4,914 nucleotides of DNA, taken from IMG/VR virus record IMGVR_UViG_2734482547_000011; one strand, 5' to 3'. This DNA is from a virus. Its lineage: Duplodnaviria; Heunggongvirae; Uroviricota; Caudoviricetes. The translations under genes and the position numbers were made by a program. Under the pieces are notes generated by a model. That model ran no database searches, had not been told where the DNA came from, and saw nothing but the letters and a program-made list of their open reading frames with translations. Shown here piece by piece: positions 1 to 4,830 of this stretch (its first letter is position 1; every line of letters starts with the position of its first letter).

Positions 1-25
1 GGGAAAAATATCATCAGATGGCTGC

Positions 26-214
26 TTAAAAAAAGAACAAATGGTAGTGTCCGCTATTGCCAGTACACCTCAGGGTATAAGGGGTTATGGCCACCGGACT
101 ACCAAACGGCTGCCAGCCCTCTTTCAGTTTATGTGTCAGCTTTTCCGCAAGATCTGACGGCGGCGCCGCCCTGACAACATCATAGTGTTTAAATGCCATG
201 GTTCTTTCCACCAT
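26..214 (-). CDS. Small hypothetical phage protein (57-62 aa); possibly a conserved small lambdoid-prophage family, family name not confirmed
   Basis: ORF in six-frame track (MVERTMAFKHYDVVRAAPPSDLAEKLTHKLKEGWQPFGSPV...). An internal ATG at 197-199 (MAFKHYDV...) is preceded by GGTGGAAAG, a plausible SD, so the true start may be there. GC content is host-like, unlike the AT-rich DNA just upstream. Family assignment is from memory only. Confidence 0.45.
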   Translation of the reverse strand: MVERTMAFKHYDVVRAAPPSDLAEKLTHKLKEGWQPFGSPVAITPYTLRCTGNSGHYHLFFF

Positions 215-229
215 CTGAAAAATAATTCT
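212..229. repeat. Direct repeat copy 1: CATCTGAAAAATAATTCT
   Basis: Matches 366-383 (CATCAGAAAAATAATTCT) at 17 of 18 positions, with a 13-bp exact core GAAAAATAATTCT; seen directly in the sequence. Confidence 0.6.
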
Positions 230-365
230 TTAAAATACCTGACATGTAATACAGAAAAAACACAAAACCATACCTTAAATAAAAACCTGATTATCAAGCA
301 GATATGCATGGATAAACTACAAGACGAGATATAAACCACCCTGCATTTAAATAAACAATAAACAA

Positions 366-383
366 CATCAGAAAAATAATTCT
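366..383. repeat. Direct repeat copy 2: CATCAGAAAAATAATTCT
   Basis: Second copy of the 18-bp direct repeat, lying just upstream of the candidate promoter of the 460-795 ORF. Confidence 0.6.
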
Positions 384-390
384 GCTCTAT

Positions 391-420
391 GGTTTACATT
401 CAAAAATATCATTTATACTT
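391..420 (+). promoter_or_regulatory. Candidate sigma70-like promoter for the 460-795 ORF
   Basis: TTTACA at 393-398 and TATACT at 414-419 with a 15-bp spacer (shorter than the optimal 17), in AT-rich DNA about 40 bp upstream of the ORF start. Sequence reading only. Confidence 0.25.
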
Positions 421-459
421 TTCAGAACATCACCAGCAAGGCATAAACAAGGAAACTAA

Positions 460-795
460 ATGAAGTGGATTGTGATTGATACAGTTATCCAGCCATCATG
501 CGGAATATCTTTTTCAGTCATATGGAGTAAAATAAAATTAATAATCTGGTATCAATCGGATGCTTTCTTACCTCCTGAAAGTATATTTACACTGACTCAC
601 ACAGGCATCATGCTCAATAACAAAGTGCTACCTGTAACCATTTACAACGTAGTACCATTCAATAAAACATTCTGGAATTCAATCAAAAATAGCCAGGAAT
701 GCCCTACAAATACAGATAACGTATTGAATGAATGCTTTAATAACCGTTGCACTCTGCAAATATGTCCTTATGGACTAAAACAACAAAGTCCATAA
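460..795 (+). CDS. Hypothetical orphan protein, 111 aa, AT-rich, with a Cys-containing C-terminal region (moron-like cargo gene)
   Basis: 336-nt ORF in roughly 30-35% GC DNA, where stop codons are frequent, so an open frame of this length is unlikely by chance. AAGGA lies 7 nt upstream of the ATG. It is transcribed opposite to the phage late operon. A perfect 20-bp palindrome follows 36 nt after the stop. The C-terminus has 4 Cys ([26 protein letters not shown]). I recognise no family. Confidence 0.45.
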
Positions 796-830
796 GGAGT
801 TTACTCACATCTGACAAAATCAATATAAAC

Positions 831-850
831 AGCCCCTCCGGAGAGGGGCT
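831..850 (-). terminator. Perfect 20-bp palindrome AGCCCCTCCGGAGAGGGGCT (8-bp GC-rich stem, 4-nt loop); possible terminator or insulating hairpin
   Basis: Arms are exact reverse complements. On the minus strand the hairpin is followed by GTTTATATTGATTTTG (T-rich); on the plus strand there is no T-run. It sits between convergent transcription units. Confidence 0.35.
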
Positions 851-1242
851 GGAGAGTGGCGCTATGTGCCATTGCATGGTGCCGGGTGCCTCCCGGTGAA
901 TTCAGTACCAGCACCTGAATCCGCGATTATCCCATATACCTACTCGCTGATTGCCCCTCCGCACAGGGGGATTCACCATGCCAGTTTCTTTTAACAAACT
1001 CCCCGCAAACCAGACAACAGTCAACCGCCTGAATTGTGAAGTATTTAAAAATTTCTCCCGCTAACTGATACCCGGCTAACAGTCTGGCGTTTTCTTTTTC
1101 AGCAACGGGAAAGCAACAACCACCACACCCGCCACCAGCACACCGTCAGCCAGCACTGACATTATCCGGCTGCTGCAATGCCATTCACAAAAACAGTAAG
1201 CAATCACTTTTTACCGTAACAGGTGATAATCCAGATATGTAT

Positions 1243-1596
1243 CTACCCCAGATGAGTAATCCGAAGTTCATCCATACCACAGGTCCTGGCTATTCTGTTG
1301 TACTCCTGAACAAGAGCAAATAATTCTGAATTAGCAACCATGAACTCATCGCAAACCCTCTGTATAGCATCACTATTCAGAATAATAACGTCTCTTCCCG
1401 AAAGACGATCAGGAGTACAGAACAAAACTGTCAAACGGCTGAAGGCCTTTGCTCGTGCTGCATTGACTATATCAATACGCTGCCTAAGGATGAAACACCC
1501 CGACGCCTCATCAATATTCACTCTACCCACACCATATGAATGATAAATATTTAATGCTGAAAAAACCATTAGACCGTATAACAAACACTCAATCAA
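1243..1596 (-). CDS. Doubtful ORF (117 aa from a TTG start, 108 aa from the first ATG); hypothetical or degraded
   Basis: ORF track only. The start codon at 1596 is TTG, there is no convincing SD before either TTG or the first ATG (1567-1569), and I recognise no family. It occupies the position where stx-phages carry cargo. Confidence 0.2.
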   Translation of the reverse strand: MIECLLYGLMVFSALNIYHSYGVGRVNIDEASGCFILRQRIDIVNAARAKAFSRLTVLFCTPDRLSGRDVIILNSDAIQRVCDEFMVANSELFALVQEYNRIARTCGMDELRITHLG

Positions 1597-1706
1597 TACT
1601 TAACAGAACTTTTATTTTTGACAAACATAAAATATTTTCAACAATATCCTGAGCCAGGTATATTTCAGTATAAGGCTCTGCCGGAAGGAATCTGGAAGAA
1701 TGAATA

Positions 1707-1783
1707 TGGCGCGCTGTACTGGATTCGAACCAGTGACCGATTGCTTAGAAGGCAATTGCTCTGTCCGGCTGAGCTAACAACGC
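1707..1783 (-). tRNA. tRNA-Arg (anticodon UCU), phage-encoded argU-like
   Basis: Minus-strand sequence GCGTTGT-TA-GCTC-AGCCGGACA-GAGC-A-ATTGC-CTTCTAA-GCAAT-CGGTC-ACTGG-TTCGAAT-CCAGT-ACAGCGC-G-CCA folds as a canonical cloverleaf: 7-bp acceptor stem (one G:U), TTCGAAT T-loop, anticodon loop CT-TCT-AA, encoded CCA. Confidence 0.85.
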
Positions 1784-1796
1784 TGAATACCGATAA

Positions 1797-1876
1797 TGGA
1801 CCGCCATCGGGGACCCGCCCCCGCACCAACAACCCTGTTATCGTGTCGTCTGCTCTTCCTGATAAGCTAATGGCGG
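1797..1876 (-). tRNA. Degenerate tRNA-like element (possible tRNA pseudogene at the middle position of the cluster)
   Basis: Perfect 7-8-bp acceptor-like pairing (ACCGCCAT...ATGGCGGT) followed by CCA, and a D-arm-like TAGCTTATCAGGAAGAGC, but no canonical anticodon stem-loop and no GTTCRANYC T-loop (GGGGCGGGTCCCC instead). About 4 nt longer than a standard tRNA. Confidence 0.3.
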
Positions 1877-1883
1877 TTTGTGA

Positions 1884-1959
1884 TGGTGGCCCTTGCTGGA
1901 TTTGAACCAGCGACCTGGCGATTATGAGTCGCTCGCTCTCACCACTGAGCTAAAGGGCC
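1884..1959 (-). tRNA. tRNA with CAU anticodon, most similar to tRNA-Ile2 (lysidine, reads AUA)
   Basis: Minus-strand GGCCCTT-TA-GCTC-AGTGGTGA-GAGC-G-AGCGA-CTCATAA-TCGCC-AGGTC-GCTGG-TTCAAAT-CCAGC-AAGGGCC-A-CCA; canonical cloverleaf with one A:C mismatch closing the anticodon stem. Closely resembles my recollection of E. coli ileX. A tRNA-Met assignment cannot be excluded from sequence alone. Confidence 0.8.
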
Positions 1960-1961
1960 GG

Positions 1962-1998
1962 GAGCAGAATAATAACGGTCCGTAATTAATTCCGCAAT
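1962..1998 (-). promoter_or_regulatory. Weak candidate promoter in front of the tRNA cluster
   Basis: On the minus strand: TTGCGG, 17-nt spacer, TATTAT, then 9 nt to the mature tRNA 5' end. The -35 hexamer is poor (3 of 6) and overlaps the terminator U-tract. Confidence 0.2.
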
Positions 1999-2022
1999 AA
2001 AAAACCCGCTCGGCGGCGGGTT
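1997..2022 (-). terminator. Rho-independent terminator downstream of the Q-like gene (tR'-like position)
   Basis: Minus strand reads AACCCGC-CGCCGA-GCGGGTT followed by TTTTTTATTG: a GC-rich 5-7-bp stem plus a six-T run, about 40 nt after the Q-like stop codon. Confidence 0.6.
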
Positions 2023-2061
2023 GTAGAAACTCTTCTAACGTCAGGCATAAAACGCCCATAG

Positions 2062-2916
2062 TTATGACGAATTTACCACAGATTCCGGAAAAATCAACCT
2101 AGTTACCTTTTTTAACTGCCGCTCAGCCCATGCTTCTTCAATATCAAACCGAGTCACCAGCGCATCATAGAATTTCTTAACTGTTTTTTCCCATGACGCG
2201 CGTGTTATCTGGTTTGTCACCTCGCATATAGCATTAAATGCCTCCGTTGATGGTAGTCTTTCATAGCCACGACCACCACAACGCTGGCAGTCTCTGATAA
2301 CAGGCATACCACGTTTTACCGACTCTTCACGATGAATGGCGACACCACGCCCACGGCAATCCTTACAGGCGGTGGAAACCTCACCCTTTCCGCCACACTC
2401 CGGACAGGCAACTTTTACCACCTCCCTGACTTTTTTCCATTCTTCCCAGTAAGACGGATACACACCTTTCGTACACTTTGCCCATACCGGCGGCTTACCA
2501 TCCGGATACTGGACCTTGTTTGTAAAAACTACGCTTTCAATAAATTTTTCCCCATAGCAACAAGGGCACTGCTTTTTACTCGCTGCGCTGCGGGCATAAT
2601 CCTCAAAAGCGTACGAAGCCATAATGCGCATCACTACCGGTTTTATTTCTGCCGGAAGTTTTCTCAACGCCGCCACACGATCGCACCGACTGAGTGCATA
2701 ATCTGCCAGTAATTCTGTTGCCCGCGCCCTGTCATTCATACTGATGCCCATTTTCCCCAGGAACGCAGAAAACCCCATCTCAGCCCGATTCTGTGTCATG
2801 CCCTGCGCGGCCATCACATCAGTGATACTCAGCGCATCTTTTGACGTTGAGGCCGATGCATCGGTCAGGCAAGGGGATTTTGGGGAGTAGTATTTCGGTA
2901 AATCTTCCAGTTTCAT
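2062..2916 (-). CDS. Phage late-gene antitermination protein Q-like, 284 aa, with three CxxC-G-x-G zinc-knuckle motifs
   Basis: Canonical ATG with a 4-nt ATGA overlap onto the rusA stop. Position (after rusA, before terminator and tRNA cluster) matches lambdoid Q. Motifs CPECGGKG, CKDCRGRG and CQRCGGRG indicate a zinc-binding domain. Functional call is from gene order and recalled family features, not a search. Confidence 0.6.
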   Translation of the reverse strand: MKLEDLPKYYSPKSPCLTDASASTSKDALSITDVMAAQGMTQNRAEMGFSAFLGKMGISMNDRARATELLADYALSRCDRVAALRKLPAEIKPVVMRIMASYAFEDYARSAASKKQCPCCYGEKFIESVVFTNKVQYPDGKPPVWAKCTKGVYPSYWEEWKKVREVVKVACPECGGKGEVSTACKDCRGRGVAIHREESVKRGMPVIRDCQRCGGRGYERLPSTEAFNAICEVTNQITRASWEKTVKKFYDALVTRFDIEEAWAERQLKKVTRLIFPESVVNSS

Positions 2917-3287
2917 TTTTTGACCTGCTCTTCATGCATTATGGGGTAAATCTTCACCCCCAGACGTCCACCAGATACTGGCTGACCACGAACGATATTG
3001 ATTTCATCAAACTGCTCATCGTCCATTAACACTCCCGCATGTGTCAGTGCATCCAGTGGTGCTTTCAGGATATTGTCCAGGTCACGACGGCGCTTATCCG
3101 GTGGCTCTGCAATAATCTTTATCGCCAGTCTTCCGGACAGGCTTAATTTCAGTCGCTGCTGACGGACAATAAGCGCCACATCCCGGCGATAACGCTCACC
3201 GGCTTTTGATACAAAATATGTGTTGTCACGACGTCGCCAGTAAGTATTCACCGTCGGCGGATAAGGTAAAATAAACTCATGGCGCAT
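2913..3287 (-). CDS. rusA: RusA-family Holliday junction resolvase (crossover junction endodeoxyribonuclease)
   Basis: 124 aa. Blocks LPYPPTVNTYWRRR, VSKAGERYRRDVALIV, PDKRRRDLDNILKAPLDALTHAGVLMDDEQF and SGGRLGVKI align with recalled E. coli RusA (LPWPPSNNRYYR..., [40 protein letters not shown]). Start ATG overlaps the upstream stop (TGATG). Confidence 0.88.
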   Translation of the reverse strand: MRHEFILPYPPTVNTYWRRRDNTYFVSKAGERYRRDVALIVRQQRLKLSLSGRLAIKIIAEPPDKRRRDLDNILKAPLDALTHAGVLMDDEQFDEINIVRGQPVSGGRLGVKIYPIMHEEQVKK

Positions 3288-3664: not shown

Positions 3665-3820
3665 TAGACTGGCCCCCTGAATCTCCAGACAACCAGTATC
3701 ACTTAAATAAGTGATAGTCTTAATACTAGTTTTTAGACTAGTCATTGGAGTACAGATGATTGATGTCTTAGGGCCGGAGAAACGCAGACGGCGTACCACA
3801 CAGGAAAAGATCGCAATTGT
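3665..3820 (+). mobile_element. IS2 left-end fragment (156 bp: terminal inverted repeat plus the first ~21 codons of insC), truncated
   Basis: Identical over 156 bp to the IS2 end at 4374-4529 (TAGACTGGCCCCCTGAATCTCCAGACAACC...), then diverges at 3821. Confidence 0.85.
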
Positions 3821-4143
<323 letters not shown>

Positions 4144-4373
4144 NNNNNNNNNNNNNNNNNNNNNNNNNNNNNNNNNNNNNNNNNNNNNNNNNNNNNNNNN
4201 NNNNNNNNNNNNNNNNNNNNNNNNNNNNNNNNNNNNNNNNNNNNNNNNNNNNNNNNNNNNNNNNNNNNNNNNNNNNNNNNNNNNNNNNNNNNNNNNNNNN
4301 NNNNNNNNNNNNNNNNNNNNNNNNNNNNNNNNNNNNNNNNNNNNNNNNNNNNNNNNNNNNNNNNNNNNNNNNN
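4144..4373. other. Assembly gap (230 N)
   Basis: Uninterrupted run of N; the flanking sequences are both IS-derived repeats. Confidence 0.99.
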
Positions 4374-4464
4374 TAGACTGGCCCCCTGAATCTCCAGACA
4401 ACCAGTATCACTTAAATAAGTGATAGTCTTAATACTAGTTTTTAGACTAGTCATTGGAGTACAG

Positions 4465-4830
4465 ATGATTGATGTCTTAGGGCCGGAGAAACGCAGACGG
4501 CGTACCACACAGGAAAAGATCGCAATTGTTCAGCAGAGCTTTGAACCGGGGATGACGGTCTCCCTCGTTGCCCGGCAACATGGTGTAGCAGCCAGCCAGT
4601 TATTTCTCTGGCGTAAGCAATACCAGGAAGGAAGTCTTACTGCTGTCGCCGCCGGAGAACAGGTTGTTCCTGCCTCTGAACTTGCTGCCGCCATGAAGCA
4701 GATTAAAGAACTCCAGCGCCTGCTCGGCAAGAAAACGATGGAAAATGAACTCCTCAAAGAAGCCGTTGAATATGGACGGGCAAAAAAGTGGATAGCGCAC
4801 GCGCCCTTATTGCCCGGGGATGGGGAGTAA
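4465..4830 (+). CDS. insC: IS2 transposase OrfA (InsC), 121 aa
   Basis: Translation [56 protein letters not shown]... matches recalled IS2 InsC. True start is the ATG at 4465, not the upstream ATG at 4420 used in the ORF track. Confidence 0.9.
4782..4788 (+). promoter_or_regulatory. Programmed -1 ribosomal frameshift site A_AAA_AAG (IS2 OrfA to OrfAB)
   Basis: The heptamer A AAA AAG is in the insC zero frame, and the -1 frame continues open as [42 protein letters not shown] (InsD N-terminus). Confidence 0.8.

Follow-up and report, generated by a model that had tools for sequence, protein, structure and literature searches.

Organization of the locus

We analyzed a 4,914-nucleotide stretch of DNA (the window) from a Caudoviricetes record (IMG/VR IMGVR_UViG_2734482547_000011), whose features are collected in Table 1. 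The late genes of the prophage read on the minus strand, on which the order is RusA, Q antiterminator, tRNA(CAU), tRNA-Arg(UCU), a slot (1706..215) and a DUF1737 gene; the slot is the variable accessory-gene ("moron") region of a lambdoid prophage, flanked by the Q/tRNA block on one side and the DUF1737/lysis block on the other. A weak candidate pR'-like element (TTGATT-N16-TAAATT, 2097..2070), which fell below the threshold of the scan, was read by eye within the 3' end of Q. Between the two tRNAs lies a relic of argN in which both ends are kept and ~45 nt of the interior are replaced; this relic gave no ARAGORN or Rfam tRNA match, and three ARAGORN tRNAs are found in Escherichia coli CFT073. 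For the ileZ-like tRNA(CAU), the RefSeq label in both CFT073 and E. coli 042 is tRNA-Ile. The tRNA-Arg(UCU) is the upstream anchor of the interval that corresponds to the position of stx in Shiga toxin phages. At the opposite end, the DUF1737 ORF is authentic over 70-214 only, its C-terminus having been swapped for IS600 sequence. Window positions 92-200 are 84% identical to the 5' end of the esterase gene of an Stx2 phage, and DUF1737, which is homologous to the N-terminal part of NanS-p esterase in Stx2 phages, anchors the slot on its downstream side and is conserved there.

Base composition changes in steps along this region, with a GC content of 0.29-0.36 over 201-800, 0.46-0.52 over 701-1200, 0.34-0.43 over 1201-1700 and 0.545 in the tRNAs. 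A preliminary description of 215-1706 had reported a sharp compositional break, a doubtful 117-aa ORF, a hairpin-rich segment and an AT-rich gene on the opposite strand in what it took to be a cargo slot between Q with its tRNAs and the lysis side. Each of these items was recovered: the GC steps are real, the ORF occupies 1596..1243 on the minus strand and is the longest that a scan of the slot returned, the hairpins (830-851, 882-896, 899-921 and 954-970) all fall within 821-1010, and the gene described as lying on the opposite strand occupies 460..795 on the plus strand. The slot itself was likewise borne out, with its anchors in order, tRNAs that match their Stx2-phage counterparts at 87% identity, and lysis genes in its relatives.

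Table 1. Features annotated in the window, with the evidence for each.
Feature	Coordinates	Strand	Evidence or remark
IS600 (IS3 family) end	1..69		Cuts into the DUF1737 gene; 1-~80 matches IS600 ends at 95-100%
DUF1737 ORF	214..26	-	Pfam PF08410, 57 bits; phrog_2036
iraL promoter and 5' UTR	327..459	+	-10 TATACT at 414-419; TSS 427; corresponds to the CFT073 -100..+33 complementation fragment
iraL, 111-aa RssB anti-adaptor (IraM/IraL/RssC family)	460..795	+	NCBIfam NF007393
STnc100-family sRNA	1010..821	-	Rfam RF02076, 132.4 bits (GA 47), model 1-206, E=5e-30
DUF3927 small membrane protein, 43 aa, GTG start	1207..1076	-	Pfam PF13064, 95.6 bits; phrog_1470 "TciB-like"
92-aa gene, GTG start, unnamed family	1521..1243	-	phrog_2873 (234 bits) / phrog_4827
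tRNA-Arg(UCU), argO-like	1783..1707	-	ARAGORN; Rfam tRNA, 68 bits; aligns to Stx2 phage argO
Relic of middle tRNA-Arg(UCG), argN	1784..1883	-	Alignment to CFT073
tRNA, CAU anticodon, ileZ-like	1959..1884	-	ARAGORN and Rfam
tR'-like intrinsic terminator	2003..2022	-	Just downstream of Q; terminator scan
Q antiterminator, Q82 / PF03589 type	2916..2062	-	Pfam PF03589, 184 bits
RusA	3287..2913	-	Pfam, 61 bits; precedes Q

The opposite-strand gene is iraL

The product of the plus-strand gene matched NCBIfam NF007393 (IraM subfamily) at 162 bits (cut-off 121) over residues 1-110 of 111, and matched the IraM structure PDB 8TWD at E=6e-31. It is identical to IraL of CFT073 at 110 of 111 residues, the sole change being S74 here for L74 in CFT073. 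RefSeq names the gene "IraM". The authors of PMC4045071 assigned iraL alleles by a coding region that is, along its full length, at least 95% identical to that of CFT073 iraL, together with a conserved promoter, and 460..795 falls within this definition: in addition to the protein identity, the 245 nt upstream carry 3 differences, and the published 5'RACE sequence agrees with window 427-458 at 31 of 32 positions. Over 215-470, 3 of 256 positions differ from CFT073, two of them within 327-459. Compared with IraL of CFT073 (c1429), which lies in the potB prophage (Hryckowian et al., 2014; PMC4045071), the gene has the same promoter, TSS sequence and neighbors (DUF3927, STnc100, DUF1737, tRNAs and Q); as differences, the argN tRNA is intact in CFT073 and an IS200C separates Q from the tRNAs there, while the prophage described here is cut by IS600 and IS2. 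The protein is 61% identical over 107 aa to IraM of K-12 (b1160; PDB 8TWD), with which it shares family NF007393 and an identical 12-residue motif at the N-terminus, whereas the context of K-12 iraM, beside e14, is different. Expression of iraM in K-12 is regulated by PhoP/Mg2+.

PMC4045071 reports that CFT073 IraL binds RssB and stabilizes RpoS (immunoblot, two-hybrid and pulldown), that expression of iraL takes place in log phase, and that the IraL-RssB contacts are unlike those of other characterized anti-adaptors. From the 99% identity to the CFT073 protein we infer that the IraL encoded here would also bind RssB and lengthen the half-life of RpoS. In the proposed mechanism, iraL would be expressed within 215-820 from a sigma-70 promoter of its own (TSS 427) on the strand opposite to the late genes, IraL would bind the adaptor RssB so that RpoS is not passed to ClpXP, and more RpoS would be present during exponential growth.

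Morons of the lambda type, in the concept of Hendrix and Juhala, are exemplified by bor and lom. Like these, iraL would be autonomous, with its own promoter, placed between conserved phage genes and of benefit to the lysogen, and its composition is unlike that of its flanks (GC 0.29-0.36 against 0.45-0.55 over most flanking phage genes). Unlike these, it runs counter to the late operon, to which it is convergent, and an evident terminator for it alone was not seen: the hairpin that follows iraL (830-851) is without a U-tract on the plus strand. Since iraL would form an autonomous unit, it could be active in a lysogen without Q, even in a prophage remnant bounded by IS600 and IS2.

STnc100 separates two cargo sub-slots

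The hairpin-rich segment is mostly an STnc100-family sRNA, whose 3' end is an intrinsic terminator made up of a stem (851..830) and a U-tract. Thermodynamic folding was unremarkable (z=-1.5); the identification comes from the covariance model and not from free energy. The RNA lies after the cargo at the stx position and before the DUF1737/esterase gene, as it does in the Stx2 phage Lyz12581Vzw, where STnc100 (4031..3830) begins 74 nt past the end of stxB (4106) and ahead of the DUF1737-esterase gene; such a position after stx2B agrees with PMC12370729 and PMC12711010. According to these two papers, STnc100 overlaps EcOnc27/sRNA103, which lies downstream of stx2B, and is related to PasD; EcOnc27/sRNA103 is a discrete Hfq-associated RNA in O157:H7 (PMC12711010), and an 11-nt complementarity to stxB was reported for the Stx2-phage sRNA (PMC12370729). 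The copy described here resembles that of the Stx2 phage in lying on the late-gene strand, ~65-75 nt past the last cargo gene and before the DUF1737 gene; it differs in that it follows DUF3927 and not stxB, that the two copies share only 76% nucleotide identity, and that the stxB target of the reported complementarity is absent.

We conclude that STnc100 is a conserved anchor and a recombination boundary that separates two cargo sub-slots, which makes it a practical landmark to delimit the stx-equivalent interval. The whole of 215-1706 had been proposed as that interval; only the 696 bp of 1011-1706, from the argO-like tRNA to STnc100, correspond to it exactly, and iraL occupies the second sub-slot, from STnc100 to DUF1737. 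Stx2 phages (Lyz12581Vzw; 933W type) have the same order of anchors, namely Q, ileZ, (argN), argO, cargo, STnc100, DUF1737-domain gene, holin and lysozyme. In contrast, their stx-position interval measures 1405 bp, their Q has 144 aa (284 aa and of the PF03589 type here), DUF1737 forms the N-terminus of a 645-aa esterase (a stand-alone short ORF here), and stxAB are present while no iraL sits between STnc100 and DUF1737. The absence of Shiga toxin genes, as had been suspected, was confirmed by BLASTN against the Stx2 phage, which aligned the tRNAs, STnc100 and DUF1737 only; a possible Stx remnant was sought in 1011-1706 and rejected, this interval being without similarity to stxAB of Lyz12581Vzw.

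The slot is carried by many annotated prophages and is built of exchangeable pieces

Positions 70-2100 are collinear at 98-99.6% identity with many genomes, including annotated prophages of CFT073 (98.1% over window 70-2001) and 042 (99.2% over window 70-2200). In CFT073 the order is Q, IS200, ileZ, argN, argO, DUF3927, the IraM-annotated gene, DUF1737, holin, YdfR, lysozyme and lysis protein, and the gene order in 042 is the same; these near-identical prophages run on into holin, YdfR, lysozyme and Rz directly after the slot. Since positions 1-69 are IS600 and the lysis genes are outside the window, the lysis side of the slot was deduced from these prophages. A single place covering at least 80% of window 1-2100 was found in 863 of 5426 complete E. 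coli genomes, the iraL module alone in 1429 and 1011-1706 alone in 1183, so that the slot sequence is present in roughly 16-26% of them, as well as in the potB prophage of CFT073.

Other phages share parts of this stretch. Phage mEp460 shares 873-2100 only, vB_EcoS-640R1 shares 70-1039 and 1742-2200, and an Stx2 phage shares the anchors alone. Mosaic breakpoints lie at 831, 873, 1039 and 1699-1742. The breakpoints against mEp460, vB_EcoS-640R1 and the Stx2 phage, together with the GC steps, support the earlier suggestion of separately acquired modules, which would be exchanged independently. The slot would thus consist of three pieces (1011-1706, 1010..821 and 215-820), with cargo swapped by recombination at the anchors provided by the tRNAs, STnc100 and DUF1737.

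Taken as a whole, the slot is explained best, and we hold this with high confidence, as a moron region with swapped pieces that contains the known prophage cargo iraL and STnc100 and two tiny genes. It is ordinary in the sense that its cargo is known and occurs in roughly one in five complete E. coli genomes.

Two small genes in the stx-equivalent interval

The interval 1011-1706 contains the 43-aa DUF3927 gene and the ORF described as doubtful. The DUF3927 protein matched PF13064 (gathering score 25) over profile positions 7-53 only and phrog_1470 at E=8e-13; its gene is annotated as WP_000562553.1 in CFT073 and 042, and its position relative to STnc100 is that of stxB. A literature search for DUF3927 or TciB gave no relevant paper.

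The doubtful 117-aa ORF is a real gene, yet a shorter one of 92 aa. Its relatives (21 cluster representatives; 91-106 aa; 22-63% identity) cover only residues 26-117 of the longer ORF and share the conserved motifs ERAxAFSRLTVLFCTPDR and ANxEL..LVxEYN. Omega was 0.22-0.31 in the core, compared with 0.81 in the 25 upstream codons of the 117-aa ORF, and in each of three pairwise comparisons the third-position excess of the core was twofold. Both shifted frames, and two frames on the opposite strand, gave ~0.8-1.2; the third opposite-strand frame gave 0.29, but it contains 4 stop codons per sequence and has the same third-position excess. The position of the start is conserved, with a good Shine-Dalgarno (SD) sequence in the relatives at loci L009 and L008. 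An AlphaFold2 model of the 92/117-aa ORF (pLDDT 69) predicted a two-helix hairpin with a disordered N-terminus, for which Foldseek against the PDB returned generic coiled-coil and hairpin matches only, none below E=0.058. A Pfam scan of ten family members gave only noise, a tblastn search of 50,697 phage records with the 117-aa ORF found mEp460_ev081 alone, and PADLOC defence models matched none of the slot proteins or those of the fuller cassette described below.

At L009 and L010 the relatives of the 92-aa gene are found in the order Q ... AraC, ORF92, TerB-like, DUF3927, holin, and in STEC1585 in the order tRNAs, TolA-like, AraC, ORF, NanS-p, holin; they thus resemble the prophage AraC cassettes (the class of O157:H7 PsrA/PsrB/PatE), directly following an AraC/HTH_18 gene within the same slot from Q to holin, whereas the window contains no AraC gene. 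In L009 the DUF3927 gene overlaps the upstream TerB-like gene, which suggests translational coupling. The stretch 1011-1706 would then be a reduced form of a cassette of AraC regulator (phrog_1450), 92-aa protein, TerB-like protein (phrog_632) and DUF3927 that is intact in other prophages, in which the 92-aa gene and the gene for the DUF3927 membrane peptide would be left, both co-oriented with the Q-dependent late transcript. Because the SD sequence ahead of the 92-aa gene is GTGGG here (weak) in place of the AGGAG or GGGAG of its relatives, and because the AraC and TerB-like neighbors are missing, this copy of the gene may be decaying.

Alternatively, the two genes are not relics and form a working late module under pR'/Q control like stx, with a role such as membrane exclusion or colicin tolerance (as hinted by the name "TciB-like"). 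This reading is possible though doubtful. It is favored by the location of both genes exactly between argO and STnc100, the site of stxAB, and by their orientation; by the conservation of the 696-bp interval at at least 95% identity in over 1000 genomes; by the purifying selection on the 92-aa family; and by annotation, PGAP treating DUF3927 as intact and PHROG placing it in the moron/host-takeover category. Against it, the AraC and TerB-like companions of fuller cassettes are gone and the SD sequence of the 92-aa gene is degraded, while DUF3927 is N-terminally shortened (43 vs. 50 aa) and has lost its overlap with the TerB-like gene; the searches of PADLOC models, structures and functional literature also returned no match, analogue or paper. 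Equally tentative is our proposal that the 92-aa protein could be a genuine part of the recurrent AraC/ORF92/TerB-like/DUF3927 cassette at the stxAB position, where it might partner or modulate either the TerB–DUF3927 pair in the membrane or prophage AraC regulators belonging to the Psr/PatE class, and that late read-through past the STnc100 terminator, antisense to iraL, could switch off IraL and lower RpoS upon induction.

It is improbable that the 117-aa ORF is spurious and that 1208-1706 codes for no protein and is a spacer or a regulatory stretch, which is what the RefSeq annotation implies. PGAP places no CDS there in the records inspected (CFT073, 042 and STEC1585), Pfam and NCBIfam gave no match to the 117-aa ORF, the translation-start signals are weak in this copy, and the first 25 codons are non-coding-like in their omega. 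A spurious frame would nevertheless have to account for relatives that keep it open together with the motifs, for omega and third-position values that most other frames lack, for a conserved start preceded by a good SD sequence in L009 and L008, and for matches to two PHROG families.

The prophage is a remnant bounded by IS elements

All E. coli matches to the slot end at position 70, next to the IS600 end, and fragments of IS2 and IS21 are found from 3665, together with an assembly gap (4144-4373), upstream of RusA, indicating that the prophage here is a remnant bounded by IS600 and IS2. An exact 45-mer spanning the IS600/DUF1737 junction was missing from the species-representative genomes, and in the single E. 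coli genome with coverage of window 1-110 the IS600 lies elsewhere, in a different prophage. Since IS600 and IS2/IS21 bound the prophage and no lysis genes are visible, Q-dependent late transcription may not extend through to lysis genes.

Genomes of Shigella are rich in IS elements and their prophages are decayed. That this entire copy is silent, as inert debris broken by IS elements, would fit with the cut in DUF1737, with the IS fragments and gap upstream of RusA and with the degenerate argN tRNA, and is nonetheless very unlikely: iraL has kept both an intact ORF and its mapped promoter, nearly the same as in the functional CFT073 allele, STnc100, two tRNAs and the Q ORF are all of full length, and iraL is enriched in Shigella (PMC4045071).

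The least credible reading, that of the preliminary description, is a novel uncharacterised cargo standing in for a toxin or virulence factor; the two small genes of the exact stx interval are without known function and STnc100 is without an established target, but iraL, the largest of the slot genes, is characterized, the hairpins belong to a curated sRNA family, DUF3927 is annotated, no match resembled a toxin or secreted effector, commensal as well as pathogenic E. coli commonly carry the segment (863-1429 of 5426 genomes), and the collinear alignment to annotated prophages has already largely refuted it.

With the slot read as a moron region of swapped pieces, one position in the late region holds Shiga toxin in some phages and a regulator of host physiology in others (here IraL, which would raise RpoS in growing cells), with a conserved sRNA marking the edge of the exchangeable cargo. 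The contents of the slot are already in the literature and databases, and the value of the analysis lies mainly in correct annotation: a small conserved gene in the stx-equivalent interval, which is present in more than 1000 complete E. coli genomes, appears to be systematically missed by RefSeq. Two further ORFs on the plus strand (747-899 and 866-994) are antisense to STnc100 and without family matches, and we do not regard them as genes; one of the two is entered as a PGAP pseudo-CDS in 042 and CFT073.

Organization of the late regulatory region

Read on the minus strand, the window is the part of a lambdoid prophage that regulates its late genes. GC content was 0.29-0.36 at 201-800, 0.46-0.52 at 701-1200, 0.34-0.43 at 1201-1700 and 0.545 over the tRNAs. 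The window contains no lysis genes; in the near-identical prophages of E. coli 042 and CFT073, holin, YdfR, lysozyme and Rz come directly next.

Features of the window
Feature	Position	Strand	Evidence
IS600 (IS3 family) end, inserted in DUF1737 gene	1-69		
DUF1737 ORF	214..26	minus	profile match; next after the slot (1706..215)
Opposite-strand ORF	460..795	plus	ORF scan
STnc100, full length	1010..821	minus	RF02076, 132 bits vs 47
DUF3927 gene, 43 aa	1207..1076	minus	95.6 bits; phrog_1470 'TciB-like'
ORF92	1521..1243	minus	phrog_2873, 234 bits; phrog_4827 weakly
117-aa ORF	1596..1243	minus	ORF scan
tRNA-Arg(UCU)	1783..1707	minus	tRNA calls
tRNA, CAU anticodon	1959..1884	minus	tRNA calls
Intrinsic terminator	2022..2003	minus	terminator scan
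Q antiterminator, PF03589 type	2916..2062	minus	profile match
RusA	3287..2913	minus	profile match
Truncated DUF968/YdfU-like ORF, 85 aa	3544..3287	minus	phrog_2565

The stx-equivalent slot and its modules

The preliminary description had placed a cargo slot without Shiga toxin at the stx-equivalent position, 215-1706, and the order of anchors agrees with that of the Stx2 phage Lyz12581Vzw: Q, ileZ-argN-argO, stxA-stxB, STnc100, DUF1737-esterase (NanS-p), DUF1378, DUF826, holin, lysozyme (argO end 5437; stxB end 4106; STnc100 4031..3830). Since only three anchors aligned between the two by BLASTN, namely the tRNA block (window 1699-1999, 87%), STnc100 (831-1039, 76%) and DUF1737 (92-200, 84%), the real stx-equivalent interval is, judging from this alignment, the narrower 1011-1706 (696 bp, compared to 1405 bp in Lyz12581Vzw). 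The AT-rich gene of the slot, iraL, lies on the far side of STnc100, in a second sub-slot bounded by DUF1737. Shiga toxin is absent from the slot, which showed no long ORF and no toxin family match, and to which stxAB of the Stx2 phage did not align. The 117-aa ORF, the opposite-strand ORF and the hairpins were found at the places described, the hairpins all inside 821-1010. The slot is therefore real and toxin-free, and its content is known and common; calling it uncharacterised largely fails, given its collinear alignment to annotated prophages, the very finding named beforehand as refuting. Remaining novelty is limited to an unannotated 92-aa gene family and a possible antisense relation of late transcription to iraL.

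Phage mEp460 has only 873-2100 in common with the window, its cargo on the other side being TolA-like, and phage vB_EcoS-640R1 shares 70-1039 and 1742-2200. The iraL module was present in 1429 of 5426 complete genomes, the 1011-1706 interval in 1183, and window 1-2100 at a coverage of at least 80% in 863. Mosaic breakpoints lie within or next to STnc100, the tRNAs and DUF1737, a placement that fits recombination at conserved anchors and supports the proposal of separately acquired modules.

ORF92 and the DUF3927 gene

The 117-aa ORF had been considered doubtful. Its 92-aa core (ORF92) is a real gene, with 17 close relatives and 21 cluster representatives; relatives of 91-106 aa (22-63% identity) align to residues 26-117 only and have strong motifs in common. 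Against two relatives of 72-75% nucleotide identity, the core showed an omega of 0.22-0.31 and a twofold third-position excess, whereas the 25 upstream codons gave 0.81 and no such excess. Omega was ~0.8-1.2 in the two shifted frames and in all but one of the three opposite-strand frames; that remaining frame gave 0.29, yet contains 4 stop codons in each sequence. ORF92 starts with GTG at 1521, preceded by a degraded GTGGG where the relatives have AGGAG or GGGAG. Its AlphaFold model, a predicted helical hairpin, had no informative neighbor in a structure search, and no defense-system or Pfam assignment was found. RefSeq has no CDS over ORF92 in CFT073, 042 or STEC1585, although the interval is present in more than 1000 complete E. 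coli genomes.

In two loci with ORF92 relatives (L009 and L010) the cassette reads Q ... N6-methyltransferase, AraC/HTH_18, ORF92, TerB-like (phrog_632), DUF3927, holin; STEC1585 has, in sequence, tRNA-Ile, tRNA-Arg, TolA-like, AraC, the ORF, NanS-p and holin, and in a further locus (L008) the relative is preceded by a Q-like gene and a tRNA. Because all that the window retains is ORF92, at 75% nucleotide identity to L009, and a portion of DUF3927, we read 1011-1706 as a putative reduced remnant of an AraC/ORF92/TerB-like/DUF3927 cassette. The DUF3927 gene ends 65 nt upstream of STnc100, where stxB sits in Stx2 phages.

STnc100

Published work locates STnc100 75 nt downstream of stx2B and describes it as overlapping the Hfq-bound EcOnc27/sRNA103 and as related to PasD (PMC12370729, PMC12711010). 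In the window its 3' end is a terminator at 851..830 (terminator scan). On the strand opposite to it, RefSeq annotates a pseudo-CDS for a partial 'hypothetical protein' (window 866-994, plus; 9797-9922 in the 042 locus L001; 18269-18394 in the CFT073 locus L005), which had no family match and is probably an annotation artifact over the sRNA. vB_EcoS-640R1 (L002) has two copies ~280 bp apart (5752-5940 and 6216-6409), the second only ~78% identical to the window, consistent with PasD/STnc100 diversification (2026 bioRxiv preprint).

iraL and late transcription

By its sequence, the opposite-strand ORF is iraL: its product scored 162 bits against the NCBIfam IraM model (cut-off 121), is 61% identical to K-12 IraM (partial structure, 8TWD), and matches at 110 of 111 residues the CFT073 protein that RefSeq names IraM, which is c1429/IraL of the potB prophage. 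The RefSeq name for iraL is 'anti-adapter protein IraM'. The iraL mRNA start mapped by 5'RACE, ACATCACCAGCAAGGCATAAACAAGGAAACCA (PMC4045071), corresponds to window 427-458 with one mismatch, and the upstream region is virtually the same in the window and CFT073. Binding to RssB and exponential-phase stabilization of RpoS have been demonstrated for CFT073 IraL (PMC4045071).

In the lysogen, iraL would be transcribed from its own sigma-70 promoter and IraL would sequester RssB, letting RpoS escape ClpXP, as shown elsewhere. Judging from orientation, a Q-dependent late transcript would carry ORF92, DUF3927 and STnc100, starting at a weak pR'-like site in the 3' end of Q and usually stopping at 2022..2003; upon induction, it would continue across iraL in the antisense direction.

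In 2003-2100 (minus), this pR'-like site (TTGATT-N16-TAAATT) lies within the last codons of Q, ahead of the terminator. Together they would yield a short RNA of ~65-70 nt, presumably a counterpart of the 6S RNA of lambda and of StxS in Stx phages. In this stretch Rfam gave nothing beyond a sub-threshold Trp_leader-like match.

tRNA block, insertion sequences and prophage edges

In the ileZ-argN-argO trio the central tRNA (1784-1883, minus) is degenerate and uncalled by ARAGORN and Rfam: both ends match CFT073 argN (tRNA-Arg UCG) and ~45 interior bases are replaced. This variant is not a sequencing error, because E. coli 042 has an identical one. Between Q and the tRNAs, CFT073 carries IS200C with its STnc490 RNA (L005 16567-17158), absent from the window and 042.

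E. coli matches to the prophage all end at position 70, next to the IS600 end. At the other edge, the DUF968/YdfU-like ORF matches phrog_2565 solely at its C-terminal end (positions 121-203 of 204) and is apparently a piece of a longer gene, cut where an IS2-like element starts. The left end of an IS3-family (IS2-like) element occurs twice, in identical copies of 156 nt: the first (3665-3820) is truncated and adjoins a C-terminal fragment of IS21 istB (PF01695, 3879-4142), and the second (4374-4529), separated from it by an assembly gap of 230 N (4144-4373), runs on into transposase orfA (PF01527).
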